A stretch of DNA of 19,969 bases from a virus (Duplodnaviria > Heunggongvirae > Uroviricota > Caudoviricetes). Shown in pieces: positions 1-19,969 of the stretch. The position numbers and the translations under genes are program-made. Location: IMG/VR virus record IMGVR_UViG_2675903289_000008. One strand, given 5' to 3'. Within the stretch, counting starts at the first letter, position 1. Each line of letters starts with the position of its first letter. Below the pieces are notes generated by a model. It made no database searches. It had not been told where the DNA came from and saw only the letters and a program-made list of their open reading frames with translations.

Positions 1-7
1 GATCTTT

Positions 8-530: not shown

Positions 531-532
531 CG

Positions 533-1114: not shown

Positions 1115-1124
1115 GAGGTGAATC

Positions 1125-1373
1125 GTGGTAACAGATAACCGCTCACTGATGAGTAGTGCTCATCAGAAGGCATTCAGTCTTGCAACACAGTTACCTCCTG
1201 AAACCATAAAAGCGTGTCGTGAGTTGACTGAACTCAGCATTGCCGGGGAAATATCCCTGGAACAACTGCATTCGCTGCTGGCAGGGGCTGTCACTGATGA
1301 GTTGAGTGGCGTGGACGTGATGACTGAAGAGCTTGAGTTCCGAATCAAAAGCATTCTGACAGGTAAAGCCTGA
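1125..1373 (+). CDS. small protein whose C-terminal ~30 aa copy the small-terminase C-terminal tail
   Basis: 82-aa ORF with GTG start 6 nt after AGGAGG (1113-1118); TGATG overlap with large terminase start. C-terminus AVTDELSGVDVMTEELEFRIKSILTGKA parallels small-terminase AVTDELRGVDGMSEQIEFRIRQMLLGKA. Confidence 0.55.
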   Translation: MVTDNRSLMSSAHQKAFSLATQLPPETIKACRELTELSIAGEISLEQLHSLLAGAVTDELSGVDVMTEELEFRIKSILTGKA

Positions 1374-3037
1374 TGAACAAAGCCAAAGAAAAGTCTCCTT
1401 CACTGATACAAATGACACCTCCCCGCAAAATTGATCTGTCCGGTGAAAAAGCCCTGCTGGGCGTGGATGTGCCGGACAGCCTTGATTTGCCCGGTGATAT
1501 GCCGGTGTTTCTGGATTATCAGGCCCGCTGGTTTGCAGATGAAAGTCAGGTCTGCATCGCGGAGAAATCCCGACGCACCGGGCTTACCTGGGCGGAAGCC
1601 GGGCGTAACGTCATTACCGCCGCAAAGCCTAAGCGTCGTGGTGGCCGTAATGTGTTTTATGTGGGGTCAAAACAGGAGATGGCGCTGGAATATATTTCTG
1701 CCTGCGCGCTGTTCTCCCGTGCCTTTAACCAGCTGGCAGATGCTGATGTGTATGAGCAGACATTCTGGGATCGGGATAAAAAAGAAGAAATTCTGACCTA
1801 CATGATCCGCTTTCCGAACAGTGGATTCAAAATTCAGGCATTGTCTTCCCGTCCGTCAAACCTGCGCGGTCTTCAGGGGGATGTGGTGATTGATGAAGCC
1901 GCGTTCCACGAGTCACTGGATGAGCTTCTCAAGGCGGCAATGGCGCTCACTATGTGGGGCGCACGCGTGCGCATTATTTCCACGCATAACGGCGTCGATA
2001 ATCTGTTTAATCAGTACATTCAGGAAGCCCGCGAGGGGCGCAAGGATTACAGCGTCCACCGCATAACCCTGGATGATGCCATTGCGGACGGGCTGTACCG
2101 TCGTATCTGTTACGTCACCGATCAGGAATGGTCACCGGAAAGCGAGCAGAAATGGCGTGATGATCTCTACAAAAACGCCCCGACCCGTGAGGATGCCGAC
2201 GAGGAATACGGCTGTATCCCGAAAAAATCCGGCGGTGCCTATATTCCTCACGCGCTTATTGAAATGGCGATGATTCGTGACATCCCGATTCTGACGTTTG
2301 AAGCCCCGGACGACTTCATCAGCCGTGCCGCATGGCTGCGTGAATCGGAAGTTTTAACCTGGTGTGAAGAACATTTAAAACCGCTTACAGAGAAATTAAA
2401 TCCCCGTTCCCGCTTCAGCTTCGGGGAAGACTTTGCCCGCACCGGTGACCTGTCCTGCTTTGTGCTGCTGGAAATCACCGAACTCCTGGCAAAGCGCGAG
2501 GTGTTTCGCGTGGAGCTGCGCAACCTGCCGTATGCCCAGCAGGAACAGGTGATGATGTACATCCTGACCCGCGTTCCGGCGCTGGTCGGTGCGGCGTTCG
2601 ACGCCACCGGTAACGGCGGCTATCTGGCAGAGGCCGCACTGCTGGCCTTTGGCCCGGACATCATCGACTGCGTGATGTTGTCGCCGAAGTGGTACGGCGA
2701 GTGGATGCCAAAACTGAAAGCCGAGTTTGAAGATCAGAATATCCTCGTCGCCCGCCATCAGACCACGCTTGATGATTTGCGCCATGTGAAGGTGGTGAAT
2801 GGTATCCCGCAAATCGACAAGGGGCGCACGAAGGACCAGAACGCAACGGCTGCGAACGCCCGCCGCCATGGTGATTTTGCCGTGGCACTCTGTATGGCAA
2901 ACCGGGCGTCATACATGGAGGGTTTCATCCTGGATGAATCAGCCTGTCAGGCGCTGCCGGAGCGGTCGCGGGCAATGGAGGGCGGTTATCGTGATGACGA
3001 TGAGGCATATCATGAATTTGATCGGGGGTGCTGGTAG
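1373..3037 (+). CDS. terminase large subunit (Mu gp28-like)
   Basis: 554-aa ORF; position after small terminase and before portal; acidic ATPase-like stretch (VVIDEAAF) and C-terminal nuclease-like region; coherent codon usage. Confidence 0.85.
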   Translation: MNKAKEKSPSLIQMTPPRKIDLSGEKALLGVDVPDSLDLPGDMPVFLDYQARWFADESQVCIAEKSRRTGLTWAEAGRNVITAAKPKRRGGRNVFYVGSKQEMALEYISACALFSRAFNQLADADVYEQTFWDRDKKEEILTYMIRFPNSGFKIQALSSRPSNLRGLQGDVVIDEAAFHESLDELLKAAMALTMWGARVRIISTHNGVDNLFNQYIQEAREGRKDYSVHRITLDDAIADGLYRRICYVTDQEWSPESEQKWRDDLYKNAPTREDADEEYGCIPKKSGGAYIPHALIEMAMIRDIPILTFEAPDDFISRAAWLRESEVLTWCEEHLKPLTEKLNPRSRFSFGEDFARTGDLSCFVLLEITELLAKREVFRVELRNLPYAQQEQVMMYILTRVPALVGAAFDATGNGGYLAEAALLAFGPDIIDCVMLSPKWYGEWMPKLKAEFEDQNILVARHQTTLDDLRHVKVVNGIPQIDKGRTKDQNATAANARRHGDFAVALCMANRASYMEGFILDESACQALPERSRAMEGGYRDDDEAYHEFDRGCW

Positions 3038-4626
3038 TGGGACGCATAATTGATCTTGACGGAAAACCTTTCTCCTTTGACCCGGAGATGCAAAGTACCG
3101 CGCTGGATATTCCGCAGATTGCCAGCCGTTATGTTGAGCATCCCGCCTCGGGTATCACCCCGAACCGGGCGGCGCAGTGCCTTCGCGGGGCTGAACGTGG
3201 CGATCTGATTGCCCAGTCCGATCTGGCGGCTGACATTGAAGAAAAGGACACCCACCTTTTTGCGGAGCTGGGCAAGCGACGTCTTGCCATTCAGGGGGTG
3301 CCATGGAGCATTGAGCCGCCACCGAACGCCAGCGCGAATGAGAAAAAGGACGCGGAAATGCTCGACGAATATCTGCATTCCGCAGACTGGTTTGATGCCA
3401 TGCTGTTTGACGCCACGGATGCCATCCTGAAGGGCTATTCCTGCATGGAAATTGAGCACGGGATGCTCGGTAAAATGCACATCATCCGCGCCATCCGCTG
3501 GCGTGACAGCGGGCATTTCTGCCTTAACCCGGATGATTTGAGCGAACTGCGGCTGCGTGACGGCAGCCATGCCGGGGTGGCGTTTCAGCCCTTTGGCTGG
3601 ATAGTGCATCAGTCGCGTTCACGCACCGGCTACGGTGGTGCGACGGGGCTTGTCAGAACGCTTATCTGGCCGTTCATTTTCAAAAACTATTCCGTGCGCG
3701 ATCTGGCGGAATTTCTGGAGGTGTACGGCCTGCCAATGAAGGTCGGGAAATACCCGTCCGGGGCAACACCGGAGCAGAAAAGTGCCCTGATGCGGGCGGT
3801 GATGGATATCGGGCGACGTACAGGCGGGATCATCCCGGCCGGGATGTCGCTGGAGTTTCAGGCGGCAGCGAACGGTCAGGCCGATCCGTTTGAAACCATG
3901 ATTTCGTGGGGTGAGCGTTCCATCTCCAAAGCAATACTCGGCGGCACGCTGACCACGGAAGCCGGAGACAAAGGCGCGCGCTCGCTGGGTGAGGTGCATA
4001 ACGAGGTGCGCCGGGAAATCAGGGATTCTGATTTACGCCAGCTGGCTGCAACCCTGAACCGCGATCTGGTGTATCCGCTGTATGCCCTGAACACCGCCCA
4101 CGCCATTGATATCCGTCGCCTGCCGCGTATCTGTTTCCAGACCAAAGAACCGGGGGATATCACCAAAATAGCCAGTGCGGTGATGCAACTCAGTGCGGGG
4201 ATGGATATTCCTGATCCCTGGGTACGGGAGCAGACCGGTATTCCACAGCCCACGCCCGGTGAAGCCATATTCCGTGTCCGTCAGAGCAGTAATGAACCGG
4301 CCATGCCTGACAGGGAAACGCTACCGGAAAAACAGGAAAAGACAGAACAGACGGCGCTTTCAGCCCGACTGCCGGAAGCGAAAAACACGCCGCGTGATGA
4401 ACTGGACGACATGGGGGACGCGGTGCCTGCCCGCCGCTTACAGGAGGCCATCGATCCGGTGCTGGAGCCGGTCATTGATGTCATCAGAACGCGGGGGCTG
4501 GCGGAGGCACTGGCAGACCTGCCTGCCCTTTACCGTGAAATGGATGATTCCCGCCTGATGACGCTGCTCAGTGATGCCATGTTTGCTGCGGAAATGAAGG
4601 GGATGCTGGATGGCTCAGGGGATTGA
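3037..4626 (+). CDS. portal protein (Mu gp29/H-like, DUF935-type)
   Basis: About 530-aa ORF after the terminase. GTG at 3037 sits 9 nt after a GGGGG run and overlaps the terminase stop (TAGTG); the ORF track start at GTG 3028 is the alternative. Confidence 0.8.
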   Translation: MGRIIDLDGKPFSFDPEMQSTALDIPQIASRYVEHPASGITPNRAAQCLRGAERGDLIAQSDLAADIEEKDTHLFAELGKRRLAIQGVPWSIEPPPNASANEKKDAEMLDEYLHSADWFDAMLFDATDAILKGYSCMEIEHGMLGKMHIIRAIRWRDSGHFCLNPDDLSELRLRDGSHAGVAFQPFGWIVHQSRSRTGYGGATGLVRTLIWPFIFKNYSVRDLAEFLEVYGLPMKVGKYPSGATPEQKSALMRAVMDIGRRTGGIIPAGMSLEFQAAANGQADPFETMISWGERSISKAILGGTLTTEAGDKGARSLGEVHNEVRREIRDSDLRQLAATLNRDLVYPLYALNTAHAIDIRRLPRICFQTKEPGDITKIASAVMQLSAGMDIPDPWVREQTGIPQPTPGEAIFRVRQSSNEPAMPDRETLPEKQEKTEQTALSARLPEAKNTPRDELDDMGDAVPARRLQEAIDPVLEPVIDVIRTRGLAEALADLPALYREMDDSRLMTLLSDAMFAAEMKGMLDGSGD

Positions 4627-5941
4627 TTTAGGTTATGCCGCCACGCTTCCCTCAAAAGAGACGGTGGCATACTTCCGCGCCAAAGGGGCGCATATCAGCT
4701 GGAACTGGTTCGAAACAGACGCGGATGTTCATGCCCGCTCATTCACGGCAGCAAAAACGGCACGGCTGGATGTGGTAACCACATTACAGGCCGAAGTGCA
4801 GCGGGCCATTGATGAGGGGATTTCACAGAAAGAATTTATCCGCACACTGACGCCACGCCTGCAAAAGCTGGGATGGTGGGGAAAGCAGATTGTGGTGGAC
4901 AGCGACGGTAACGCGGAAGAAGTGCAGCTGGGCAGTCCCCGTCGTCTGGCGCTGATTTACAACGTGAACACCCGTGTGGCTTACAATGCCGGGCGTTACA
5001 CGCAGATGATGAACAACACGGACACGCATCCGTTCTGGCAGTATGTGGCGGTCATGGACAGCCGTACCCGCCCGTCGCATTCCGCCCTTAACGGTCTGGT
5101 ATTCCGCTATGACGATCCGTTCTGGAAAACACACTACCCACCTAATGGCTGGAACTGCCGCTGCCGTGTGCGGCCATTGTCTCAGGCTCGTCTGGATGCA
5201 ATGGGGTTATCCGTTTCATCCGGTGAGGATCATCTCTCCACCCGCAATGTTGAGGCTGGCGTGGATAAACAGACCGGAGAAGTCAGAGAAATGCCGGTGA
5301 CCACATATTCAGATGGCACCAGAACCATGACACCGGATGTGGGCTGGTCATATAACCCCGGCTCGGCAGCGTTCGGCACAGACCAGGCGCTGATCCGCAA
5401 ACTGATCGAGGTGAAAAGCCCGGCGTTACGGGAAATGGTGGTTCAGGAGATGAACAACAGCCCGGAGCGGCAGCTGGCGTTCCGCATCTGGGCAAAAAAC
5501 ATCATGCAGACCCGGCGAGGTGGTAACGATATCCGCACGCTGGGCTTTATGACTGAAAGCATTGCGCAGGCAGTGGAAAGCCGGACGGGAACGCCACCGG
5601 CCCGCCTGCTGGCGATGAGCGGTAAAAATGTGCTCCATGCAGACAGTGTGAAACATCAGAATGACGGCATCGCCCTGATGCCAGAGGACTTCGGGCGCTT
5701 ACCGGCAATGCTGGCAAAGCCAAAAGCGGTGCTGTGGGACAAACGGCACAAAAATCTGATGTATATCGTGGAAAATAAGGATGGCAGTGTGCAGATTGCC
5801 GTTAATGCACCGTACAGTCTGAAACGTCAGCCCGACAAACTGGATGTGATTGTGAATGCTTACCGGGTTATCAATATGGATAAGCTGAAATCGGATATCC
5901 GGGGCGGAATGCTTGAGGTGCTGGAAGGACAAATTGATTAA
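4610..5941 (+). CDS. MuF-like head morphogenesis protein (Mu gp30/F, SPP1 gp7 family)
   Basis: 443-aa ORF with the MuF-type motif region (DSRTRPSHSALNGLVFRYDDPFW...PPNGWNCRCRVRP); follows the portal as in Mu. Confidence 0.85.
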   Translation: MAQGIDLGYAATLPSKETVAYFRAKGAHISWNWFETDADVHARSFTAAKTARLDVVTTLQAEVQRAIDEGISQKEFIRTLTPRLQKLGWWGKQIVVDSDGNAEEVQLGSPRRLALIYNVNTRVAYNAGRYTQMMNNTDTHPFWQYVAVMDSRTRPSHSALNGLVFRYDDPFWKTHYPPNGWNCRCRVRPLSQARLDAMGLSVSSGEDHLSTRNVEAGVDKQTGEVREMPVTTYSDGTRTMTPDVGWSYNPGSAAFGTDQALIRKLIEVKSPALREMVVQEMNNSPERQLAFRIWAKNIMQTRRGGNDIRTLGFMTESIAQAVESRTGTPPARLLAMSGKNVLHADSVKHQNDGIALMPEDFGRLPAMLAKPKAVLWDKRHKNLMYIVENKDGSVQIAVNAPYSLKRQPDKLDVIVNAYRVINMDKLKSDIRGGMLEVLEGQID

Positions 5942-6026
5942 CGGTCAGTGGCGGGGGTCGAACCCGCATACATGATCCACCCGGAGGCAGGCACCGACTT
6001 TACCAGTTAAGCGTACACTGACCGCC
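5942..6026 (-). other. tRNA-like structured element or tRNA remnant (minus strand); also a 9-bp inverted repeat on the + strand
   Basis: Minus strand reads GTCAGTG-TA-...CTGG...-GCGGG-TTCGACC-CCCGC-CACTGAC: 7-bp acceptor-like pairing, U8A9-like TA, D-loop GG, canonical T-arm. No anticodon stem could be folded and there is no CCA. Confidence 0.3.
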
Positions 6027-6062
6027 TGTTTATTTTATATTCATCCTTTATGCGGAGGCAAT

Positions 6063-6542
6063 ATGTCATCCATTGATGCCGCTGTCGTTGTTGACGTTAC
6101 GCGTCTCCAGCGGGTGTTTGCCCGGCTTCAGTTTGTGGGCGGCGGAAAAGACCTGGCCCGCAGTGTGGCGGAGAGTCTNNNNNNNNNNNNNNNNTCAGAA
6201 ATGGCGTTTGAACAGGAAAAAGAGCCGGACGGCGAACGCTGGCATGACTGGTCAGATCCTTACCGCAAGTGGCGTACCCGTAAGGGATACACGCCCGGCA
6301 AAATCCTGACACTGAACGGCGATCTGGCCCGCCGCCTGACCACGGATTATGGCGATACCTGGGCGCTGATTGGATCAAATGAACCTTATGCGGCCATTCA
6401 TCAGTGGGGTGGCCTGCCTGGTATGCCACCGGGACCGGCGGCCATTGGCGCACGTCCGTATATGGGCTTTGATCAGGTGGCAGAACAGGAGATCATGGAC
6501 GAAATCAGAAAACGCTTTAAAAAGGCCACAGAAACGCCGTAA
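6063..6542 (+). CDS. virion morphogenesis protein (Mu G-like)
   Basis: 159-aa ORF with GGAGG Shine-Dalgarno ahead of ATG 6063; sits between MuF and protease/scaffold as in Mu; reads in frame across the 16-nt N-run 6179-6194. Confidence 0.7.
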   Translation: MSSIDAAVVVDVTRLQRVFARLQFVGGGKDLARSVAESXXXXXXSEMAFEQEKEPDGERWHDWSDPYRKWRTRKGYTPGKILTLNGDLARRLTTDYGDTWALIGSNEPYAAIHQWGGLPGMPPGPAAIGARPYMGFDQVAEQEIMDEIRKRFKKATETP

Positions 6543-6719
6543 TGGTTTAAGGTATGCAAACGTATTACCTTACCCCCTTCAGGCGCGTGTCGTGATTTTC
6601 TAACCTGTATTTAACGGGCTTTAAAATCTGCGTGAAGCGCCTTTCTCATTTTTCCCCTGTCAGCACTTTCTGAAGTCCCGCAAAACCGGCCCCGAAAAAC
6701 ACCGGCTTATGCTGCCGGA
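6543..6719. promoter_or_regulatory. long G-I intergenic region: candidate strong gyrase site and/or late promoter
   Basis: 177 nt non-coding gap in an otherwise overlapping operon; TAAAAT -10-like hexamer at 6622-6627; hairpin CCGGC-N7-GCCGG (6702-6718) abuts the I start codon. Positional equivalent of the Mu G-I interval. Confidence 0.35.
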
Positions 6720-7922
6720 ATGAAGACGAAAAACACGCCCAAACTTGCTTATGCCATTCTGAATGCCATCAGCCTGTCCGCAGACGGGGACGGTGACTGG
6801 TGTCAGATCATGCCAGCCGGTCGGGTAAAGGCCCGTGACGGTCGCCCGGAAAAACCGGCGGAAGGCTGGCTGATTAACCATGCGGCCGTTGAGCGCATGG
6901 TATCCCGGGTTGTGGCGCTCAATCAGCCGGTAAAAATTGACTACAACCACCAGACCCTGATTAAGGGGCATCCGGCACCGGCTGCCGGTTTTGTCATGGC
7001 CTCACCGGAAAACTTCCGCTTCAGTGAAGAGCGGGGTTTTGAAGTGCGTCCGGACTGGAACCCTCCGGCCATTGAACACCTGCGCAATAACGAATTTCCC
7101 TGGTTTTCCCCGGTGATTGGTTATGACGAAATCACCGGTGAACCTGTTGAGCTTCGGATGCTGGCTATTACCGGTGACCCCGGTCTGACTGGCATGAATC
7201 CTGTCGCCGCACTGTCGGCGGATGACCTTTATAACGCCTTAAACCCTCCTTTAAAGGACACCTCCATGAATGAGCAATTACGCCAGTTGCTGACGGCGCT
7301 CGGTCTGACCGTGGCCGACGGTGACGAATTTACACCGGAACTGGGCACGGCGGCGCTGTCTGCCCTTACCGGGATCAAAACCCGTGCGGATGCGCACGAC
7401 ACCCTGAAAACGCAGGTTGCCAGCCTGTCGGCAGAGCTGGAAACCGCAAAAGGCACACCAACTGGCGGCACTATTGATCTGACGAAATACGTGCCCGTTG
7501 AGACGTATAACGNNNNNNNNNNNNNNNNNNNNNNNNNNNNNNNNNNNNNNNNNNNNNNNNNNNNNNNNNNNNNNNNNNNNNNNNNNNNNNNNNNNNNNNN
7601 NNNNNNNNNNNNNNNNNNNNNNNNNNNNNNNNNNNNNNNNNNNNNNNNNNNNNNNNNNNNNNNNNNNNNNNNNNNNNNNNNNNNNNNNNNNNNNNNNNNN
7701 NNNNNNNNNNNNNNNNNNNNNNNNNNNNNNNNNNNNNNNNNNNNNNNNNNNNNNNNNNNNNNNNNNNNNNNNNNNNNNNNNNNNNNNNNNNNNNNNNNNN
7801 NNNNNNNNNNNNNNNNNNNNNNNNNNNNNNNNNNNNNNNNGTCGGCTGAAGATATCGCCGCCGCCCATCTGCTGGGTAAAACCGAAGCCGAGTTCCTGAA
7901 AATGAAAGAGGAAATGCAATAA
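6720..7922 (+). CDS. head maturation protease/scaffold (Mu I-like)
   Basis: 400-aa ORF directly upstream of the major head gene (TAATG overlap); N-terminal protease-like region, A/L/T-rich helical C-terminal half; contains N-run 7513-7840. Confidence 0.8.
   Translation: MKTKNTPKLAYAILNAISLSADGDGDWCQIMPAGRVKARDGRPEKPAEGWLINHAAVERMVSRVVALNQPVKIDYNHQTLIKGHPAPAAGFVMASPENFRFSEERGFEVRPDWNPPAIEHLRNNEFPWFSPVIGYDEITGEPVELRMLAITGDPGLTGMNPVAALSADDLYNALNPPLKDTSMNEQLRQLLTALGLTVADGDEFTPELGTAALSALTGIKTRADAHDTLKTQVASLSAELETAKGTPTGGTIDLTKYVPVETYNXXXXXXXXXXXXXXXXXXXXXXXXXXXXXXXXXXXXXXXXXXXXXXXXXXXXXXXXXXXXXXXXXXXXXXXXXXXXXXXXXXXXXXXXXXXXXXXXXXXXXXXXXXXXXXSAEDIAAAHLLGKTEAEFLKMKEEMQ
7266..7922 (+). CDS. candidate nested scaffold protein (Mu Z-like) from an in-frame internal start
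   Basis: In-frame ATG at 7266 preceded by AAGGA; downstream sequence (MNEQLRQLLTALGL...) is helical and scaffold-like; Mu makes Z from inside I in the same frame. Confidence 0.35.
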   Translation: MNEQLRQLLTALGLTVADGDEFTPELGTAALSALTGIKTRADAHDTLKTQVASLSAELETAKGTPTGGTIDLTKYVPVETYNXXXXXXXXXXXXXXXXXXXXXXXXXXXXXXXXXXXXXXXXXXXXXXXXXXXXXXXXXXXXXXXXXXXXXXXXXXXXXXXXXXXXXXXXXXXXXXXXXXXXXXXXXXXXXXSAEDIAAAHLLGKTEAEFLKMKEEMQ

Positions 7923-8869
7923 TGCCTACCCCGATCACACCGGCGATGATCACCGCCCTGATGACGGGCTACCGTTCTGATTTTCAGGCCGGGATGTCCA
8001 TGGCTCCGTCTCAGTACCAGAAAATTGCGATGACCGTACCGTCCACGTCGAAATCCAACACCTACGGCTGGCTGGGGCAGTTCCCGCAGTTCCGTGAGTG
8101 GATCGGCTCCCGCGTCATCGAGAAGATGAAAGCCTATGGCTACGCCATCGTGAACAAAACCTTTGAAGGCACCGTTGCCATTAGCCGCGATGACTTTGAA
8201 GACGACAATCTTGGCATCTACTCCCCGTTGTTCCAGGAGATGGGGCGCGCTGCGGCGGCACAACCGGATGAACTGGTCTTTGCTGCACTGCGTGATGGTC
8301 TGAATGCGGCCTGCTATGACGGCCAGAACTTCTTTGATACCGAACACCCTGTTTACCCCAAAGTGGATGGCTCCGGTGATGCACAGATGGTCAGCAATAT
8401 GTTTGTGGCAAAAACCGGCTCTGTCGGTGCACAGGCGGATTACAGCGGCCCGGCCTGGTATCTGCTTGACTGCTCCCGCGCGGTAAAACCGCTGATTTAT
8501 CAGGATCGCCGCAAGGCCGAACTGGTTGCCCAGACAAAAGTCGATGAAGGCCGTGCGTTTACTGATAACGAGTTTGTGTTCGGTGCTTCCGCCCGTCGCA
8601 ATGTGGGCTACGGCTTCTGGCAGATGGCCTACATGATGCAGTCACCGCTGACGCTGGATGCGCTGTGGCACGGCTGGTCAGCCATGCGTGACTTTAAGGC
8701 TGACGGTGGCCGCAAACTCGGCATCAAACCCACCCATATTGTTGTCCCCACCTCGCTGGAAAAACAGGCGGTGCAGCTGCTGGAGCGCGAGCTGTTCGCG
8801 GACGGTAACACCACCGTCTCTAACGAGATGAAGGGCAAGCTGGAGCTGGTTGTCGCGGATTATCTGTAA
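7922..8869 (+). CDS. major head subunit (Mu T/gp34-like)
   Basis: 315-aa ORF following the protease/scaffold gene; start overlaps its stop; strong codon bias typical of a highly expressed structural gene. Confidence 0.9.
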   Translation: MPTPITPAMITALMTGYRSDFQAGMSMAPSQYQKIAMTVPSTSKSNTYGWLGQFPQFREWIGSRVIEKMKAYGYAIVNKTFEGTVAISRDDFEDDNLGIYSPLFQEMGRAAAAQPDELVFAALRDGLNAACYDGQNFFDTEHPVYPKVDGSGDAQMVSNMFVAKTGSVGAQADYSGPAWYLLDCSRAVKPLIYQDRRKAELVAQTKVDEGRAFTDNEFVFGASARRNVGYGFWQMAYMMQSPLTLDALWHGWSAMRDFKADGGRKLGIKPTHIVVPTSLEKQAVQLLERELFADGNTTVSNEMKGKLELVVADYL

Positions 8870-8876
8870 ACGGTGA

Positions 8877-8895
8877 GCCGGGCTTACGGCCCGGC
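8877..8895 (+). other. GC-rich hairpin directly after the major head gene
   Basis: GCCGGGC-TTACG-GCCCGGC, perfect 7-bp stem with 5-nt loop, 8 nt after the stop; no U-tract follows, so not a canonical intrinsic terminator. Confidence 0.4.
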
Positions 8896-8912
8896 CCCTG
8901 CGGAGGGCAAAT

Positions 8913-9266
8913 ATGAATGAACATCACACTGTGGCAGCAACAGATGATTCAGGCCTTCAGGTCAGTGGTGACAGTCCTGTCACGGTACTGGCAGAAGTGC
9001 GTTGCAGTCGTGCGCAGTTTCGTCGTGCGGGGTTCCTGTTCATGCGGGGACGCCAGCAGGTTGACGTCACCCCGGAGCAGCTTGCCCGACTGGAAGCGGA
9101 GCCATGCCTCACTGTACGAATACTACAGACGCCTGGTGATGATGCGGGAGCCGTGGCGGGTGTGGTTCATGCAGAGACCGGTGCAGATTTAGCCGAAGCC
9201 GGACAGGATGCTCCCCGGAAAAAGACCGGCAATAACGCCAGACAGGCGAAAAAGGCTCGCGCATGA
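8913..9266 (+). CDS. hypothetical protein (position of Mu gp35), basic C-terminal tail
   Basis: 117-aa ORF with GGAGGG Shine-Dalgarno; stop overlaps next start (ATGA); preferred codons (CGT, CTG, GCG) support this frame over the overlapping 8917-9192 frame. Confidence 0.6.
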   Translation: MNEHHTVAATDDSGLQVSGDSPVTVLAEVRCSRAQFRRAGFLFMRGRQQVDVTPEQLARLEAEPCLTVRILQTPGDDAGAVAGVVHAETGADLAEAGQDAPRKKTGNNARQAKKARA

Positions 9267-9682
9267 ATTACGCCACCGAAACCGATATGCGGGCACGTTA
9301 CCGCGAGGATTTGCTCAGGCCATTACTGGCCGTGCCCCGTTCGGATGAGCCGGACGCGCGCAAGCTGAACCGGGCACTGACGGACGCGTCTGCCCTTATC
9401 GACAGTTACCTGTCTGCCCGTTACACGCTGCCGCTGGCGGTGGTTCCGGCGGTCCTTGTTCAGCATTGCTGCACGATTGCCTTTTATTACCTGTGCGATC
9501 AGCGGGCATCCGATCAGGCGCGTGACCGTTACCGTGAGGCGCTGGCCTGGCTGAAAGATGTCATGAACGGTAACGTGCCGGTCGGCGTGGATACAGACGG
9601 TGCGGCCCCTGAATCCGGGGATTTACCGCAGGTGCAGTCTGATGCGGCGGTGTTCGGGCGCAACCAGAAGGGCTTTATATGA
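9263..9682 (+). CDS. head-tail junction protein (Mu gp36-like, DUF1320-type)
   Basis: 139-aa ORF, coupled at both ends by ATGA overlaps; position after the major head gene as in Mu. Confidence 0.65.
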   Translation: MNYATETDMRARYREDLLRPLLAVPRSDEPDARKLNRALTDASALIDSYLSARYTLPLAVVPAVLVQHCCTIAFYYLCDQRASDQARDRYREALAWLKDVMNGNVPVGVDTDGAAPESGDLPQVQSDAAVFGRNQKGFI

Positions 9683-10242
9683 TTACGGAAACCGAGCAAG
9701 CGTACATCGCCCGTATCCGTGAGTATTTCGGGAATGAACTGGTGTCAGTTGACACGCATCCCGGCGACTGGAGCGACAGTGTGCTGCGCACCATGCTGAT
9801 TAGCGCCCCGGCGATCTACGTTGCCTGGCTGGGTGCCGGTGAAGGCCGTACCCGTGGGCGTCTGGTCAGCCACTGGGTGTTCTACGTCATCGGCGACATG
9901 CTCAATGGCCGTGAGGTCAGCCGTCCCGGGCTTTATCAGATTGTGGCCCGCCTGATTACCGTGCTGGACGGCTTCAGAACCGAAAAAACCTCACCGCTTT
10001 ACTTTGAAAAGGCGGTCAACGGTTACACCGAAACGCAGGCCGACAGTGGCGCGGTGATGTATGCGCTTTATTTCTCCTGCGAGGAAATGATCGCACCGCT
10101 GACTGATATCAGCTCGCTGGATGATTTCCTGCGCCATTACGAAACCTTCACCGAACCGGAAGGCACACCGGAATTTAAGGCGCACATCAGCCTGCCAGGT
10201 GCAACCGCCGCCGGTGAAAAAGCCGGACCGTCAGAGGAATAA
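9679..10242 (+). CDS. head-tail junction protein (Mu gp37-like, DUF1834-type)
   Basis: 187-aa ORF, ATGA overlap with the preceding gene; position before the sheath gene. Confidence 0.65.
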   Translation: MITETEQAYIARIREYFGNELVSVDTHPGDWSDSVLRTMLISAPAIYVAWLGAGEGRTRGRLVSHWVFYVIGDMLNGREVSRPGLYQIVARLITVLDGFRTEKTSPLYFEKAVNGYTETQADSGAVMYALYFSCEEMIAPLTDISSLDDFLRHYETFTEPEGTPEFKAHISLPGATAAGEKAGPSEE

Positions 10243-10245
10243 CAG

Positions 10246-10683
10246 ATGACAACCATTTTTATCAAACCCNNNNNNNNNNNNNNNNNNNNNNNNNNNNNNN
10301 NNNNNNNNNNNNNNNNNNNNNNNNNNNNNNNNNNNNNNNNNNNNNNNNNNNNNNNNNNNNNNNNNNNNNNNNNNNNNNNNNNNNNNNNNNNNNNNNNNNN
10401 NNNNNNNNNNNNNNNNNNNNNNNNNNNNNNNNNNNNNNNNNNNNNNNNNNNNNNNNNNNNNNNNNNNNNNNNNNNNNNNNNNNNNNNNNNNNNNNNNNNN
10501 NNNNNNNNNNNNNNNNNNNNNNNNNNNNNNNNNNNNNNNNNNNNNNNNNNNNNNNNNNNNNNNNNNNNNNNNNNNNNNNNNNNNNNNNNNNNNNNNNNNN
10601 NNNNNNNNNNNNNNNNNNNNNNNNNNNNNNNNNNNNNNNNNNNNNNNNNNNNNNNNNNNNNNNNNNNNNNNNNNNNNNNNNNA
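10246..10683 (+). CDS. unresolved: start of an ORF running into an N-run (small Mu gp38-like protein and/or sheath N-terminus)
   Basis: ATG 10246 with GAGGA Shine-Dalgarno, 8 codons visible (MTTIFIKP) before the N-run 10270-10682. Confidence 0.3.
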
Positions 10684-12057
10684 ATGAAAGACACCACCAT
10701 TCAGGGGCGCGGTCAGCTTGATGTACCAGTACGTATTACCCGAGCTTCACAAGCAAGAGAACTCTGGGGGCGAGGTTCCATGATTGCACTGATGGTAGAG
10801 GAATTTATCGCCATTAACCCTGACACAGAGTTATATGCCATTGCACAGGGGGCTGGAACAGGTCAGTCCAGGGCATGCGTGATGAATATCATTGGAACAG
10901 CATTGGCAGACGGGGTGTTAAGTGTTTACATCGGCGGTCGCCGTTACCTCCTGCCCGTCAGTAAGGGGAAAAAAGGTAAAGAGCTTGTGGAAGAGCTGGC
11001 TAAGGTCATTAACGCTGACACTGATGCGCCATTCACTGCTATCGCAGCTGAAGTCAGTGGTGATAATGCTGAAGGACTTAAAGGGAGCATGGGGGTTAAC
11101 GCCCGCTTTATCGGTGAATGCTCAGCTCATGATTTACGGGTGAACTATTATGACGGTGAAACTACACCGGCCGGTCTTACGCTGGAGCTCGTCGCGCCAA
11201 CACAGAAGGCAACAAACCCCGATATCACCCGTAGCGTCTCAGGGATGGGGAATCGTCAGTACAACTACATCGTCATGCCCTATAAGGATGCGGCAAATCT
11301 CAAAATTCTGGCGGATGAACTGCTGAAACGCTGGGGACCGGTAAAAATGTCGGACGGTATGGTCTGGATGGCGCATACCGGCACCTTCGGTACGGCAACC
11401 AGTTTTGGTGAATCCCGTAATGACTTCCTGTTTACCTGCACTTCTATTCCTAAAGCACCAGAGCCGGATTATGTCTGGGCGGCCTCCATTTGTGCGGTCT
11501 GTGCGCCCTCCCTGTCAACGGATCCGGCCCGACCATTACAGACACTGGCGCTGCCTGCCCGTATGGCACCTGAAGCACCGGCTCGTCTGACGCGGGAAGA
11601 GCGAAACAGCCTGCTTTATACCGGCATGTCCACGGTGACCGTTGCGGCCGCTGATGTGGTGCAGATTGAACGTCAGGTGACGATGTACCGTCAGAATGCA
11701 TACGGCGAAAGCGATCCCAGCTATCTGGATGTAGAAACCATCTACACCCTGTCATATCTGCGTTATTCCCTGCGCACCTTTATCACGCAGCGTTTCCCGC
11801 GCCACAAACTGGCCGATAACGGTACTCCCGTCCGGCCCGGTCAGAATATCGTGACGCCGGAGATTATGACGCTCCAGCTGATTGCACTGGGGGAAGAATG
11901 GGTGGAACTCGGGCTGGTCGAAAATCTGGACACCTTTAAAAAGAATCTGCTCGTGGAGCGCAACACAAAAGACCGTAACCGTCTGGATGTGATGTGTACA
12001 CCGGATCTGGTTAACCAGTTCCGCTTCATGGCCGCGCAGATCCGTTTCATTTTGTGA
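10684..12057 (+). CDS. contractile tail sheath protein (Mu L-like); true start may lie in the upstream N-run
   Basis: At least 457 visible codons of a sheath-like protein, followed by the tube gene; ATG 10684 is the first visible start but the frame is open through the mask. Confidence 0.8.
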   Translation: MKDTTIQGRGQLDVPVRITRASQARELWGRGSMIALMVEEFIAINPDTELYAIAQGAGTGQSRACVMNIIGTALADGVLSVYIGGRRYLLPVSKGKKGKELVEELAKVINADTDAPFTAIAAEVSGDNAEGLKGSMGVNARFIGECSAHDLRVNYYDGETTPAGLTLELVAPTQKATNPDITRSVSGMGNRQYNYIVMPYKDAANLKILADELLKRWGPVKMSDGMVWMAHTGTFGTATSFGESRNDFLFTCTSIPKAPEPDYVWAASICAVCAPSLSTDPARPLQTLALPARMAPEAPARLTREERNSLLYTGMSTVTVAAADVVQIERQVTMYRQNAYGESDPSYLDVETIYTLSYLRYSLRTFITQRFPRHKLADNGTPVRPGQNIVTPEIMTLQLIALGEEWVELGLVENLDTFKKNLLVERNTKDRNRLDVMCTPDLVNQFRFMAAQIRFIL

Positions 12058-12065
12058 GGTAAGGC

Positions 12066-12459
12066 ATGAGCGGAAAACAGCATCAGGGCACGGCCACCAT
12101 CCGTGTGAACGGACAGGAGTACGCCACCCTTGAGGGAGCCACGTTCTCCCCGTCCGGCTTTGAGCGTGAAGTGGTGAAAGGCGCGAAAGTCTATGGCTAT
12201 CGTGAGAAACCCCGTGAGGCGACGCTGGACTGTAAATTTCCGGCTGGCGGAGAAGGTTCACCGGCTGNNNNNNNNNNNNNNNNNNNCACCGGCTGCCGAT
12301 GAAATCAACACCTGGACTGCGGTCACGATTGAGTTCGTGGCCGATACCGGTGAAGTCCATATGATGACGAAGGCCTGGAGCAGTGAACCGGCCTCGCTTG
12401 ACGGTGGCGGTGATATCTCCGCGAAGTTCGCCAGCGCCACCAGTACCCGTGTCCAGTAA
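12066..12459 (+). CDS. tail tube protein (Mu M-like), reading frame broken at 12268-12286
   Basis: N-terminal 67 codons in frame 0 and C-terminal about 57 codons in frame 1 are both protein-like; removing 28 nt (N-run plus the second caccggctg copy) restores one ORF of about 121 aa. Confidence 0.65.
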
Positions 12460-12473
12460 TCAGGAAAAATGCA

Positions 12474-12953
12474 ATGACCACACGTAAGAAAAAAACGGCG
12501 GTTTCTGACGAGGCCGTGATGGAGGCTATCCGGGATGTACTTGAAGACGGCGATCCCCGCACCGCCGGGCTGGCTGAACAGCTGGCGAACGGCTATGTGG
12601 ATCTGCTCGACGGTCTGCCGTTCGGGGAATCCCGTGAATACCGCGTCACCTTCCGCGAACTGACGGCGAAAGACAGCATTGACGCGGAAACCGAGGCCGA
12701 GCGTCTTATGGAAACCCGAAATGGCGGCCCGGTTCTGATAGCCTCGCCGGCACTGCGCGGCATTGCACTGCTGCGCCGTCAGATTGCCGCTGTTGGCCAG
12801 ATTGAGGGGCCATTGTCTCCGCGTCAGATCGGACAGCTCAGCGAGCGCGATCTCTCCCGTCTGATGGCGGCGGTAAGCCTGCTTGATTCCGCGATGGCAG
12901 GAAAGCTGGTCGCTGAACGGGGGCGACCAGATGCAGTGCCGGGATCAGATTGA
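12474..12953 (+). CDS. tail assembly chaperone (short form)
   Basis: 159-aa acidic ORF between tube and tape measure, the conserved position of frameshift-type chaperone pairs; AGGA Shine-Dalgarno upstream. Confidence 0.65.
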   Translation: MTTRKKKTAVSDEAVMEAIRDVLEDGDPRTAGLAEQLANGYVDLLDGLPFGESREYRVTFRELTAKDSIDAETEAERLMETRNGGPVLIASPALRGIALLRRQIAAVGQIEGPLSPRQIGQLSERDLSRLMAAVSLLDSAMAGKLVAERGRPDAVPGSD

Positions 12954-13077
12954 AGAAGCCGCAATTGTGCTGGGGATGGTGACAAAAAGCGGCCCGGAGT
13001 GGGCGCTTAACCTCCCCTTATCGCAGCTTTACCGGCACTGCCGACAGACCGAAAAAATTCTCAGAACGAAGCAGTAA
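12883..13077 (+). CDS. frameshift extension ORF of the tail assembly chaperone (long form)
   Basis: Frame 1 is open from 12883 to the stop at 13077, overlaps the frame-0 chaperone by 71 nt, has no start codon or Shine-Dalgarno of its own, and ends 3 nt before the tape-measure ATG. Confidence 0.5.
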   Translation: MIPRWQESWSLNGGDQMQCRDQIEEAAIVLGMVTKSGPEWALNLPLSQLYRHCRQTEKILRTKQ

Positions 13078-13080
13078 CCC

Positions 13081-15353
13081 ATGGCAAAAAACCTGAAAGC
13101 CTCCCTGATTGTCGATTTACTCGGCAATATTTCCGCCAAATCCCGCCAGTGGTCACAGGAGCTGGGGGCATTCTCCCGTTCCGGCAGGACGGGGCTGGGT
13201 GGTCTTGGAAATGCAGCACGCCGGGCCGGTCAGGAAACAGAGCTTGTTGGCTCCCGTATGCAGCGAACGCTTGCCGGTGTTCGTGGCAGTATCCGCACGG
13301 TAACGTCAGATTTTGACCGCCTGCAGGGCAGCATTACCGGCACCATCGGGCGGATAAGCAACNNNNNCCTTTACGGGATGCTGGCGGGAGGGGCTGCGGT
13401 CTACGGTTTTAATAAAGCCTTTATCCGCCCGGCCGCAGAGATGGAGAACTATATTCTGCGTCTCAACGCCANNNNNNNNNNNNNNNNNNNNNNNNNNNNN
13501 NNNNNNNNNNNNNNNNNNNNNNNNNNNNNNNNNNNNNNNNNNNNNNNNNNNNNNNNNNNNNNNNNNNNNNNNNNNNNNNNNNNNNNNNNNNNNNNNNNNN
13601 NNNNNNNNNNNNNNNNNNNNNNNNNNNNNNNNNNNNNNNNNNNNNNNNNNNNNNNNNNNNNNNNNNNNNNNNNNNNNNNNNNNNNNNNNNNNNNNNNNNN
13701 NNNNNNNNNNNNNNNNNNNNNNNNNNNNNNNNNNNNNNNNNNNNNNNNNNNNNNNNNNNNNNNNNNNNNNNNNNNNNNNNNNNNNNNNNNNNNNNNNNNN
13801 NNNNNNNNNNNNNNNNNNNNNNNNNNNNNNNNNNNNNNNNNNNNNNNNNNNNNNNNNNNNNNNNNNNNNNNNNNNNNNNNNNNNNNNNNNNNNNNNNNNN
13901 NNNNNNNNNNNNNNNNNNNNNNNNNNNNNNNNNNNNNNNNNNNNNNNNNNNNNNNNNNNNNNNNNNNNNNNNNNNNNNNNNNNNNNNNNNNNNNNNNNNN
14001 NNNNNNNNNNNNNNNNNNNNNNNNNNNNNNNNNNNNNNNNNNNNNNNNNNNNNNNNNNNNNNNNNNNNNNNNNNNNNNNNNNNNNNNNNNNNNNNNNNNN
14101 NNNNNNNNNNNNNNNNNNNNNNNNNNNNNNNNNNNNNNNNNNNNNNNNNNNNNNNNNNNNNNNNNNNNNNNNNNNNNNNNNNNNNNNNNNNNNNNNNNNN
14201 NNNNNNNNNNNNNNNTGGCCACACAGACGGCCTCAGCACTGAATCAGGGATTTGAGTATGCCAGAGATGCTGCGACCGGCTTTTACCGGGCCATTCAGAA
14301 AGTCAGGGAAACGCTTCAGGCACTGCGCGACGCCGGTTATGGCGATGCGCTGGATCGTATTGGTCAGGGTGCGCAGACCGCCGCAAAGTACCTGATGTAT
14401 ATGTATCTCGCCTCCCGTGCGCTGAAGGTGCTCAGGTTTGCAGGGACGGGGGCATTACGTCTCGGCGCAACCCCCTTACGCTATGGCATGGCGATGACCT
14501 CCGTGCTGACGTCGCCCTTCCGCAAACCGCAGACCACTGTACCGGGAACGCAGCCCGGACGCGCTGGCCGGTTCCTGAATTTCCTTACCGGGGTAAATCC
14601 GGCTGCCGTTCAGCCCGTGCTGGTCACCAACTGGCCTGCGGGTGGCCTGGCCTCAGGTGGCGGGGATGTGGTGGTCAGCGGTGACGGCAAAACCGTGCGC
14701 GGCCGTAAAAAACGCGGCCCCGGACGTGGACGGGGTGTCACGACCGTCGTGACTGCCGGTGAGCAACTGGCGGAGAGTGCCGGTAAACAGGGCTTCTTCG
14801 GTCGTATGATGAGCCGTGCCGGTGGTCTGCTAACGGCGGCCGGAAACCGCATGGGGCTGGGGCGTTTTGCCGGGCTGTTCCGTGGTGCCGGTCGGCTGGG
14901 TGGTGGTGCCCTGTGGGCCGGTGCCATGGCGGCTCCTGTACTGCTGGACAGCAGCGCCAGTGCAGCCGATAAAGCCGGTGCCGTGGGTTCTCTTGCCGGA
15001 AGTATCGCCGGTGNNNNNNNNNNNNNNNNNNNNNNNNNNNNNNNNNNNNNNNNNNNNNNNNNNNNNNNNNNNNNNNNGCGCGGGGGGCGGCTGCCGGTCC
15101 GGTCGGGGTTGCCATTGGTTCCACGGTGGGCAGCTATCTCGGTGATTATCTGGGGGGCTGGCTGACGCAGGCCTGGCAGAAACTGCGTGGCAGCAGTGAC
15201 GAAAACGGCGGACAGGCCACCGCGAAAACCGCCGCACGGGTGGAGCTTGTGGCCCCTGAAGGCTGGCGGGCGCGCAGTATTGATGTGGATGATACCGCAC
15301 AGCATGGCCTGGATGTGAACGTCTGGAACGGAGGGAACTATGGCCTCTACTGA
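13081..15353 (+). CDS. tail tape measure protein; frame discontinuity inside N-run 15014-15077
   Basis: Long Gly/Ala-rich ORF after the chaperones. After the mask the protein-like continuation (ARGAAAGPVGVAIGSTVGSYLGDYLGGWLTQAW...) is in frame 0 and ends at 15353, overlapping the next start; the ORF track's frame-1 end at 15165 is an artefact. Confidence 0.75.
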
Positions 15354-16584
15354 CACGCCGGGGCGTGGCTCCTTTCGTGGCGTACCGTTCCTGGTTTATC
15401 AGGAGCAGCGGGAACGGGGCGGACGTAACATTGTGCGCCGTGAATACCCACTGCGTGAAAGCGGCGGTGCGGATGATCTGGGGCCAAAACTCCCGGAGTT
15501 CACATTCACGGTTCTAGTGACCGGAGACGATCTTCAGACACAGCGAAGCCGCCTGCGTGATGCGCTGCGTGCACCCGGTGCCGGTGAACTGATGCACCCG
15601 GATTACGGCACGTTAAACGTGCTGATAAACAGCTTTGAAAGCCGTTATAACGCCAGCGAGCAGGGAACGGTTGAGTTCACGATCAACGTGATCCCCGCCA
15701 GTGACGATACCGCCCCTTCGGTGGCAGAAGATACGGCAGCTGCGCTGGAGCAGAAAAGCGGCTCAGCAATGAATCAGCTGTTTAACACACTTTCAGACGG
15801 CTGGACGGTGATTTCAGACGGTCTGCATGATGTACAGGCCATGACCGACACCATCAGCGATAAAATTGATGCGCTGGAGAATGCCGTTTCAGGGATGGGG
15901 ATTGTGCAGGATATCAGTGCCTTTACGGCCAGTTTTACTGCCCTGAAAGGGAATGCCGCCGCCCTGATTAATGCGCCCCGTCGCATGGCTGAATCGCTGG
16001 CCGGAATGTTTGCCGTGCTGGCGGGGCTGCCCGGCGATCCTTCCCTGTCGCTGACCGGAAAAGCCGGAACGCCGTCCGGCAGCCTGACCACAAACCGTGA
16101 CAGCACGACAGAGCAGGCCATGCCGCAGCTGTACCGCACACTTTCTTCCCTGCGTTACACCCTCAGCGAACAGGATGATCCGCAGCGCCTGATTGGTCTG
16201 ACGCCTGCGGCACAGAACAATATCCGTCTGCTGCGGAGCGTCATGCAGAGTGCAGCCCTGGTGTCGCAGGCGCAGACGGTCGGAAAACTGCTGGATCAGG
16301 TCATCCGGCAGAATACGACGCACGTTCAGGATACTGACCGTGCGGGCGGACTGGCCTGGCTGGAAAGTTCTGCTGATGTGCAGCGTATCAACCGGGATTT
16401 GAGCGATGCCATGGAACAACAGGTGCTGGATCTGTCCGCACAGGGCCATACCGGCACCGCCCTTGCATTACGTGATGCAGGGCTTGCGCTGACAGAAGAT
16501 TTAACCACGCGGAGCGTGCATCTTCCCGGTGCTTTTCAGGTCATGGTGCGAACCACCGAACCGGCACTGGTCACGCTGTACCGT
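15340..16584 (+). CDS. DNA circularization protein (Mu N/gp43-like); 3' end hidden in N-run
   Basis: GGAGGG Shine-Dalgarno and ATG 15340; about 415 visible codons in the position and style of Mu N; the gene most likely ends inside the mask 16585-16881. Confidence 0.65.
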
Positions 16585-16881
16585 NNNNNNNNNNNNNNNN
16601 NNNNNNNNNNNNNNNNNNNNNNNNNNNNNNNNNNNNNNNNNNNNNNNNNNNNNNNNNNNNNNNNNNNNNNNNNNNNNNNNNNNNNNNNNNNNNNNNNNNN
16701 NNNNNNNNNNNNNNNNNNNNNNNNNNNNNNNNNNNNNNNNNNNNNNNNNNNNNNNNNNNNNNNNNNNNNNNNNNNNNNNNNNNNNNNNNNNNNNNNNNNN
16801 NNNNNNNNNNNNNNNNNNNNNNNNNNNNNNNNNNNNNNNNNNNNNNNNNNNNNNNNNNNNNNNNNNNNNNNNNNNNNNNNN

Positions 16882-17836
16882 GGTCATCAGTGGCTGGCTG
16901 GATCAGGTCAGTCNNNNNNNNNNNNNNNNNNNNNNNNNNNNNNNNNNNNNNNNNNNNNNNNNNNNNNNNNNNNNNNNNNNNNNNNNNNNNNNNNNNNNNN
17001 NNNNNNNNNNNNNNNNNNNNNNNNNNNNNNNNNNNNNNNNNNNNNNNNNNNNNNNNNNNNNNNNNNNNNNNNNNNNNNNNNNNNNNNNNNNNNNNNNNNN
17101 NNNNNNNNNNNNNNNNNNNNNNNNNNNNNNNNNNNNNNNNNNNNNNNNNNNNNNNNNNNNNNNNNNNNNNNNNNNNNNNNNNNNNNNNNNNNGCTGACCC
17201 GTGCTGCCCGGCATCGCGGGGTGCTGGTGACCAGTAATGCTGACGGCGATCTGGTGTTCACCCAGGCAGGAAGCCAGCAGACGGACAGACTGGTGCTGGG
17301 AGATAACCTGCTTGATGCCGATTACAACACGGACTGGCGAGGACGATACAGCGAATACCGTGTCCGGGGACACGGGCGCGGTGGTGGCAAACGGGGAGAC
17401 AGCGAATCCGCCGCCCGTCTGGCAGCACCTGTGGGCGTCATCAGTGATGAGCAGATCGGCCGCTACCGGCCGAAAATCATCCTCGCCGATCAACAGACAG
17501 ACATCACCGGTGCACGGCAGCGTGCCCTGCGTGAAATGCGCCGTGCGATTGCCCGTTCAGAACGGTTTTCTGCCACCGTGCGTGGCTGGTTCCGGGATGA
17601 TGGCCGGTTATGGGATGTCAATCTGCTGACCGGTGTTTCAGCCCTGCGTTTCGGTATAGAACAGACTGAACTGCTGGTCTGTCAGGTGGAGTTTTTACTT
17701 GATGAGNNNNNNNNNNNNCTTGATGAGCATAACGGGGAAGTCACCCGGCTGGTACTGGCACCGCGTGACGGCTTTATCGTTCCGGCAGAGCCGGACAGTA
17801 AGGGCCGGGGTGGTTCCGGTGACGATGTTGATGCCT
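16882..17836 (+). CDS. baseplate hub protein (Mu P/gp44-like, P2 gpD-like); both ends masked
   Basis: Visible segment 17193-17836 resembles the C-terminal part of late-control-D-type tail proteins; contains a 21-nt in-frame direct repeat around N-run 17707-17718. Confidence 0.55.
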
Positions 17837-18231
17837 NNNNNNNNNNNNNNNNNNNNNNNNNNNNNNNNNNNNNNNNNNNNNNNNNNNNNNNNNNNNNNNN
17901 NNNNNNNNNNNNNNNNNNNNNNNNNNNNNNNNNNNNNNNNNNNNNNNNNNNNNNNNNNNNNNNNNNNNNNNNNNNNNNNNNNNNNNNNNNNNNNNNNNNN
18001 NNNNNNNNNNNNNNNNNNNNNNNNNNNNNNNNNNNNNNNNNNNNNNNNNNNNNNNNNNNNNNNNNNNNNNNNNNNNNNNNNNNNNNNNNNNNNNNNNNNN
18101 NNNNNNNNNNNNNNNNNNNNNNNNNNNNNNNNNNNNNNNNNNNNNNNNNNNNNNNNNNNNNNNNNNNNNNNNNNNNNNNNNNNNNNNNNNNNNNNNNNNN
18201 NNNNNNNNNNNNNNNNNNNNNNNNNNNNNNN

Positions 18232-18556
18232 CACAGCCGGAGATACGGGGGTGTATCACCATGAGGGGCACCGGATACGGTTAACAAAGGATGGCCGCAT
18301 TATTGTGACATGCAAAATGCTGGAGATTTACGCCGACGAGGGGATGCGGGTGGATACGCCGGAAGCCACCTTTACGGGCAATGTGACGGTGGATAAGAAC
18401 CTGCATGTTAAGGGTAATTTCGCGCTTGAGGGTACGGGGAAATCTCAGGGACTGTTCACAATGTCGGATGCCGTTATTGCAGGGATACGGTATTCCGGCC
18501 ATGTGCATCATGATAACGGCGAAGGCAGTAAGACAGGAGTGCCGGAGAATGGCTGA
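18232..18556 (+). CDS. baseplate central spike protein (Mu gp45-like, P2 gpV-like); 5' part masked
   Basis: 108 visible C-terminal codons in the frame ending at 18556; the stop overlaps the next gene start (ATGGCTGA). Confidence 0.55.
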
Positions 18557-18986
18557 TATTGCAATTGTGTGGGATCAGGGATGCGGTTCGCTGCAACTGA
18601 ACGGTGCCGACCTGCTGACGGATGACAGTCTGCTGACGGCCGTTCTGATTTCGCTGTTTACTGACCGCCGGGCGCTGGCATCGGATGAAATCCCTGACGG
18701 TACGCGCGACCGCCGGGGATGGTGGGGAGACAGTTTTCGCCCGCGCCCCATTGGCTCCCGTCTGTGGCTTCTCAGCCGGGAAAAAACGCTGGCCTCGGTG
18801 ATAAGCCGTGCCCGTGCTTACGCGGATGAGGCGCTGGGCTGGCTCAGTCAGGATGGCGTGGCGTCATCCGTGGTCTGTCATGCAGAACGTGTGGGACACG
18901 CGCGGCTGGCGCTTTCGGTGCGCATAACCCTGCCTGATGGTTCAGTGAGGCCCATGATTTTTTATGCTGATCTTAAGGGGGAGTAA
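18549..18986 (+). CDS. baseplate wedge protein (Mu gp46-like; P2 gpW / T4 gp25-like)
   Basis: 145-aa ORF from ATG 18549 (MADIAIVWDQ...); motif LLTDDSLLTAVLISLFTDRRA typical of gpW/gp25-like proteins; the ORF track's 18405 start is an upstream extension without support. Confidence 0.75.
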   Translation: MADIAIVWDQGCGSLQLNGADLLTDDSLLTAVLISLFTDRRALASDEIPDGTRDRRGWWGDSFRPRPIGSRLWLLSREKTLASVISRARAYADEALGWLSQDGVASSVVCHAERVGHARLALSVRITLPDGSVRPMIFYADLKGE

Positions 18987-19969
18987 TGCCTTATCAGCCT
19001 TTACCGCTGGCACAGTTAATCACGCAGACACAGCAGGATATCAGCCAGCGCCTGCCCGGCTCGCAGCCGGGTGTGAATGAAACCACCCTGAATGCCATTG
19101 CTTACGCTCAGGCAGGGTTATCTGCTCAGGAGCATGAGCATCTGGCCTGGATTGCGCGTCAGATCATCCCGACCGAAGCCGATGAAGCCGAACTGCTGAA
19201 ACACTGTGCATTCTGGGGCGTCATGCGTAAGCCTGCCTCTCGGGGGGACGGGCCGGTTCAGCTGATGCTGACCACGGATGCGGGGATCAAGGAAGGTGTG
19301 CTTCTCCAGCGAAGTGATGGCGTGGTTTACCGTATCACCACCTCCCTGACCGGTAAGGCCGGTACGCTGAATGTCAGTGTGGAAGCCGAAAGTGCCGGTC
19401 GTGCGGGGAATGCCCCGGCAGGGACAAAACTGACATTTATCACACCGCAGGCGGGGATCAACCAGACGGCCACGGTGACCGGAACGGGGATCACCGGTGG
19501 TGCGGATGTGGAAACCGTGCCGGAGCTGCTTTCCCGTCTGGTTTTCCGGGTGCAGAATCCACCGTCCGGCGGCACGCAGTATGATTTTGAACGCTGGGCG
19601 CGTGAAGTGCCGGGCGTGACGCGGGCATGGTGCCGCCCGGAATGGCCGCAGGCGGGCAGCGTGGGGGTAACGTTTGTTCAGGATAATAACCCGGACATTT
19701 TCCCCGGTGACGGTGATGTTCAGCGGGTGGCGGATTATNNNNNNNNNNNNNNNNNNNNNNNNNNNNNNNNNNNNNNNNNNNNNNNNNNNNNNNNNNNNNN
19801 NNNNNNNNNNNNNNNNNNNNNNNNNNNNNNNNNNNNNNNNNNNNNNNNNNNNNNNNNNNNNNNNNNNNNNNNNNNNNNNNNNNNNNNNNNNNNNNNNNNN
19901 NNNNNNNNNNNNNNNNNNNNNNNNNNNNNNNNNNNNNNNNNNNNNNNNNNNNTCTGGTTCTGCCGTCGT
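18986..19969 (+). CDS. baseplate J-like protein (Mu gp47-like; P2 gpJ / T4 gp6-like), 3'-partial
   Basis: ATG 18986 overlaps the preceding stop (TAATG) after AAGGGGGAG; frame open to the window end, so absent from the ORF track; sequence (…YDFERWAREVPGVTRAW…) fits baseplate J proteins. Confidence 0.8.
   Translation, partial: MPYQPLPLAQLITQTQQDISQRLPGSQPGVNETTLNAIAYAQAGLSAQEHEHLAWIARQIIPTEADEAELLKHCAFWGVMRKPASRGDGPVQLMLTTDAGIKEGVLLQRSDGVVYRITTSLTGKAGTLNVSVEAESAGRAGNAPAGTKLTFITPQAGINQTATVTGTGITGGADVETVPELLSRLVFRVQNPPSGGTQYDFERWAREVPGVTRAWCRPEWPQAGSVGVTFVQDNNPDIFPGDGDVQRVADYXXXXXXXXXXXXXXXXXXXXXXXXXXXXXXXXXXXXXXXXXXXXXXXXXXXXXXXXXXXXXXXXXXXXXXXXWFCRR

Follow-up and report, generated by a model that had tools for sequence, protein, structure and literature searches.

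The question raised by this locus is whether the tail tube gene of a Mu-like prophage is broken in the organism or only in its deposited sequence. The window, that is, the whole stretch of DNA analyzed here, is the entire draft record CXCF01000059.1 (GCA_001251775.1; 19969 nt) and covers the late region, with the head and tail genes, of a Mu-like E. coli prophage. At 12268-12286 it carries exactly 19 Ns, with the 9-mer CACCGGCTG on either side (12259-12267 and 12287-12295), and the reading frame changes across the site; these features, first pointed out in a sequence-only reading of the window, are all present in the window sequence. That reading preferred a 28-bp tandem duplication that shifts the frame by +1, taken as a sign of a defective prophage or of a tube gene subject to phase variation, and kept an assembly or masking artefact as its fallback. 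Based on the comparisons described below, the feature is almost certainly a “negative” scaffold gap in a short-read draft assembly, with the tube gene intact beneath it, and not biology.

The tail tube gene and its prophage

As written in the record, the Mu-like phage tail tube gene occupies 12066-12459 on the plus strand and is only seemingly split by the scaffold gap. The ORF list contains an upstream ORF (12066-12302, 78 aa), which begins at the tube gene ATG, enters the Ns and meets a stop at 12302, and a downstream ORF (12193-12459, 88 aa), which lies in a different frame. Removal of 12268-12295, which comprises 28 nt (the 19 Ns plus the second 9-mer), yields a single ORF of 366 nt encoding 121 aa, the true length of the gene, and the repaired junction reads ...GAGAAGGTTCACCGGCTGCCGATGAAATC...; the repair put forward in the sequence-only reading, a 28-nt deletion giving about 121 aa, is thereby reproduced on recomputation. 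The nucleotide sequence of the repaired gene is 100% identical to the tube genes of NZ_CP147059.1 (L001) and NZ_OZ547136.1 (L002), and its protein is the same as that of NZ_CP145714.1 (L003). The tube protein is already known, since it is identical to RefSeq WP_000015465.1, which is annotated “phage tail tube protein.” Pfam family PF10618 (Tail_tube) matches the repaired ORF with E = 1.4e-29 and 102.8 bits (cut-off 23), spanning profile positions 2-114 of 117; this match and the identical intact genes in relatives agree with the identity that had been proposed for the gene from the sequence alone.

Window ORFs and the relatives' annotation give the same gene order, from sheath to tube to Gp41_Mu tail assembly gene, with the gene after the tube gene (12474-12953) identified by Pfam as encoding the Gp41_Mu tail assembly protein. 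Both the family match and the placement between sheath and Gp41_Mu genes resemble phage Mu, in which the PF10618 tail tube family maps to the gene M region, between sheath gene L and the gp41-like assembly gene. Unlike Mu itself, however, the window represents a Mu-like prophage variant of E. coli, and the DNA similarity of Mu, D108, and SfMu to the window is about 66% across the sheath/tube boundary. Judged from these sequence comparisons, the real gene is an ordinary, intact 121-aa Mu-like tail tube gene.

At the level of the whole prophage, the window aligns over its full length, at 96-99% identity, to prophages in about 30 complete E. coli genomes. The annotated genes of these relatives include the Mu-type portal, F, protease, gpT major head, Gp36, Gp37, DUF2635, sheath, tube, Gp41 assembly protein, tape measure, DNA circularization, and baseplate genes. 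Identity to L002, the nearest complete genome, is uneven along the window (97.7% in the first 6.2 kb, 1-6178; 98.3% at 7841-10269; 99.3-100% from 10683 onward, to 19738), a pattern consistent with mosaic recombination among Mu-like prophages.

Two further features of the region were observed. The Gp41_Mu gene (12474-12953) is overlapped by a +1-frame ORF whose end, at 13077, falls shortly ahead of the tape measure gene. Tail assembly chaperones made by programmed frameshifting usually show this layout; only a 159-aa product is annotated for the 12474-13077 region in relatives. A tRNA-like element occupies 5943-6022 on the minus strand, antisense to its two neighbors, the Mu F-like minor head gene (4610-5941) on one side and the gpG-like morphogenesis gene (starting at 6063) on the other. 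This element reaches an Rfam tRNA score of 31 bits (gathering score 29) only in a permissive local scan and was missed both by ARAGORN and by the whole-window Rfam gathering scan; PGAP calls a tRNA-OTHER at the same place in relatives. Its acceptor, D, and T arms look good, but its anticodon region measures 24 nt vs. 18.

N-run lengths and overlapping contig ends

A stretch of CXCF01000059.1 fetched independently agrees with the window letter for letter, N-runs included, and the Ns therefore belong to the deposited draft scaffold. The window contains 12 N-runs, of 5, 12, 16, 19, 64, 214, 279, 297, 328, 395, 413, and 744 nt. True gap distances were obtained by mapping the 13 sequenced pieces ungapped onto the complete genomes L002 and L003. 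Every one of the N-runs exceeds the true distance between its flanks in these genomes (12 of 12), by 6 to 147 nt, with a median excess of 25.5 nt. Upstream of the tube gene, the 16 Ns at 6179-6194 stand for a true distance of 10 nt (excess 6 nt), the 328 Ns at 7513-7840 for 250 nt (excess 78 nt), and the 413 Ns at 10270-10682 for 391 nt (excess 22 nt). The 19 Ns of the tube gene (12268-12286) correspond to a true flank distance of -9 nt (excess 28 nt), and the 5 Ns at 13363-13367, in the tape measure gene, to -1 nt, the flanks overlapping by 1 nt (excess 6 nt). Farther downstream, 744 Ns at 13472-14215 replace 597 nt (excess 147 nt), 64 Ns at 15014-15077 about 2 nt (excess 62 nt), 297 Ns at 16585-16881 282 nt (excess 15 nt), and 279 Ns at 16914-17192 238 nt (excess 41 nt); the 12 Ns at 17707-17718 again have a true distance of -9 nt (excess 21 nt), and the last two runs, 395 Ns at 17837-18231 and 214 Ns at 19739-19952, stand for 326 nt (excess 69 nt) and 191 nt (excess 23 nt), respectively. 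Summed over the first 11 gaps, the excess is 495 nt, which is exactly the difference between window 1-19738 and its 19243-nt match in L002. The 28-nt excess in the tube gene lies well inside the range of the other gaps.

These measurements bear on whether the Ns could be a deliberate mask that database or contamination screening placed over real sequence without altering its length. N-masking of stretches does occur in some collections; however, the 495-nt excess relative to the relatives is spread irregularly over all gaps, which fits estimated gap sizes, and the Ns are already in the NCBI record itself. We consider such a mask exceedingly unlikely. The sequence-only reading had itself held that Ns of unfaithful length would undo its proposal, and against gap-free relatives all 12 N-runs are too long.

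The flanks of the gap are informative in their own right. The true distance is zero or below at three gaps: 12268-12286 (-9), 13363-13367 (-1), and 17707-17718 (-9). At the first of these, the copy of CACCGGCTG at 12259-12267 forms the final 9 nt of the left contig piece (10683-12267), which ends at L002 position 13661, while the copy at 12287-12295 forms the initial 9 nt of the right piece (12287-13362), which starts at L002 position 13653. The two pieces thus overlap at L002 13653-13661, with no conflict between the copies, and the same genomic bases have been written twice. The probability of a 9-nt match falling exactly at both gap edges by chance is about 4^-9 (roughly 4e-6); the match is not due to chance, and its cause is technical. 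The same artefact occurs a second time in a baseplate gene, where 17698-17727 consists of CTTGATGAG, 12 Ns (17707-17718), and CTTGATGAG again, the two pieces overlapping by 9 nt at L002 18793-18801. Because an exact 9-nt repeat of different sequence thus flanks another gap of this scaffold, the flank repeat in the tube gene is a technical and not a biological feature. The artefact at 17698-17727 adds a false 21 nt and keeps the frame, so that a frame check would miss it.

The comparison was widened to 26 related loci, drawn from complete and draft genomes and including 13 IMG/VR contigs and a single metagenome contig. In all 26, the flank distance at 12268-12286 is -9, and CACCGGCTG is single-copy in each. 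At the other gaps, the distance is constant across all loci in which both flanks were found exactly, with 15014-15077 left unscored. The overlap in 26/26 loci, together with the wrong N lengths at 12/12 gaps, bears out the assembly artefact that had been the fallback explanation, and the same 9-nt overlap of the flanks argues against the 28-bp tandem duplication that had been preferred to it.

The 26-locus comparison also bears on the suggestion that the tube gene is phase variable, which would require repeat-mediated slippage to add or remove copies of a short unit and so act as an on/off switch. The only points in favor of such a switch are the seeming direct repeat where the frame changes and the presence in the native gene of two CCGGCTG motifs 21 nt apart. 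The gene, however, lacks a repeat tract, CACCGGCTG is single-copy and its spacing invariant in 26/26 relatives, gene length is constant in 60/60 sampled complete-genome copies, and the second copy of CACCGGCTG is accounted for by the contig overlap. The probability that the gene is phase variable is, in our estimation, practically negligible.

Searches for a duplication in real bases

A true 28-bp tandem duplication, in which the Ns would hide 19 real bases at faithful length, would produce a +1 frameshift and turn the tube gene into a pseudogene of a defective prophage. In its written form, the sequence is arranged exactly as such a duplication would be, frame change included; in addition, defective copies of this prophage family exist, with L001 scrambled and L023 carrying a deletion. 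In L001 (NZ_CP147059.1, 927266-947938; strain JKHS016), the scrambled prophage copy retains a tube gene identical to that of the window, and beside a recombinase-family gene it shows numerous partial CDS, with fragments of the tape measure, portal, protease, and DNA circularization genes in inverted order. L023, a metagenome contig (ENA ERZ27269332 k141_122180), has a 560-aa protease product directly after an 82-aa hypothetical gene, at about 2317-4244, is without the terminase-like, portal, F, and G genes, and seems to have arisen from the prophage by deletion.

We searched for the duplication in real bases using a pattern of two CACCGGCTG copies separated by a spacer of 0-30 nt. No match was found in genome_contigs (species-representative genomes), metagenome_contigs (JGI), or viral_contigs (IMG/VR), in a scan that needs exact flanks, such that a diverged duplicated allele would escape it; as a positive control, the pattern does match the window itself. 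The left flank alone also gave no match in genome_contigs, the species-representative set being without this exact allele, and the single-copy junction is present in 13 viral contigs of IMG/VR. E. coli complete genomes gave 231 matches, from which 60 records were drawn by even sampling, and all 60 contain an ungapped tube gene of 364-366 nt that is annotated as intact. Likewise, in the closest lineages, a 121-aa Tail_tube gene sits at the expected offset in all 10 places that encode the exact Gp37 protein of the window. Comparison with the tube genes of related prophages, which the sequence-only reading had proposed as a check, thus returns the intact form with a single CACCGGCTG and argues against a duplication.

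The condition of the rest of the prophage was assessed against L002. Within the sequenced bases of 23 prophage genes we found 0 internal stops and 0 indels, which runs counter to the earlier suggestion of a defective prophage. The flanks of the gap are 100% and 99.3% identical to relatives whose tube gene is intact, and the remainder of the prophage shows no decay. Taken with the absence of any real-base instance from the three collections and the sampled complete E. coli genomes, with a count of 0/12 length-faithful N-runs, and with the recurrence of the same 9-nt flank-repeat structure at a second gap, these results weigh against the tandem duplication; moreover, nothing would lead an assembler to put its Ns precisely over the 19 bases that separate two copies of a repeat. 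We judge a true duplication of this kind very unlikely. Because the record shows only Ns at the 19 positions, there is an equally slight chance that the GCA_001251775.1 isolate carries a real 28-nt insertion or duplication in its tube gene and that the assembler, by coincidence, left this very site unresolved; if so, tail assembly would be inactivated in an otherwise intact prophage. Under the favored explanation, a negative scaffold gap, the isolate's own reads would be expected to span the junction without an insertion.

Proposed origin of the negative gap and its consequences

The left contig piece (10683-12267) stops on the very 9 genomic bases, CACCGGCTG, with which the right piece (12287-13362) opens, and we propose that scaffolding or gap-filling software left so short an overlap unmerged. 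The size of the N-run would then have been taken from an over-estimated paired-read gap, and the scaffold would contain 28 nonexistent nt (19 Ns and the extra copy of the 9-mer), giving rise to the apparent +1 frameshift. Sanger sequencing has confirmed negative gaps of this kind in draft assemblies, with real overlaps of 1 to 43 bp between adjacent contigs (PMC3504050). The tube-gene site shares with the negative scaffold gaps of short-read drafts its overlapping ends, an N-run sized from paired-read estimates, a duplicated flank, and a false length, and we see no difference in kind. In GapFiller, gap edges are extended base by base, and closure needs an overlap of at least 10 nt and a size within 50 nt of the estimate (PMC3446322); an overlap of 9 nt is just under this default minimum of 10. 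The sequenced islands between Ns in the window are as short as 32, 104, and 118 nt. The two 9-nt overlaps, the short islands, and the uniformly over-estimated gaps fit a pipeline of the GapFiller type, although the software itself is something we infer from these traits.

Other reading frames in the window are affected as well. A 603-aa ORF (10246-12057) reads through an N-run and presents a false DUF2635-sheath fusion, the two proteins being separate in relatives (95 and 500 aa), and a 974-aa ORF (15340-18264) reads through N-runs and presents a false DNA circularization-baseplate fusion, with separate proteins of 452 and 374 aa in relatives. Gene callers have already passed on the tube-gene artefact: a 78-aa truncated tube product with X residues is on record for the CXCF01000059.1 contig.

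The break in the tube gene has no biological significance, and the lesson that it offers is practical. In CXCF01000059.1, the lengths of N-runs are untrustworthy, and short direct repeats beside an N-run denote overlapping contig ends. Given the unreliable N lengths and the flank repeats, frame changes, gene fusions such as those of the 603-aa and 974-aa ORFs, and “duplications” that fall at N-runs should be discounted.
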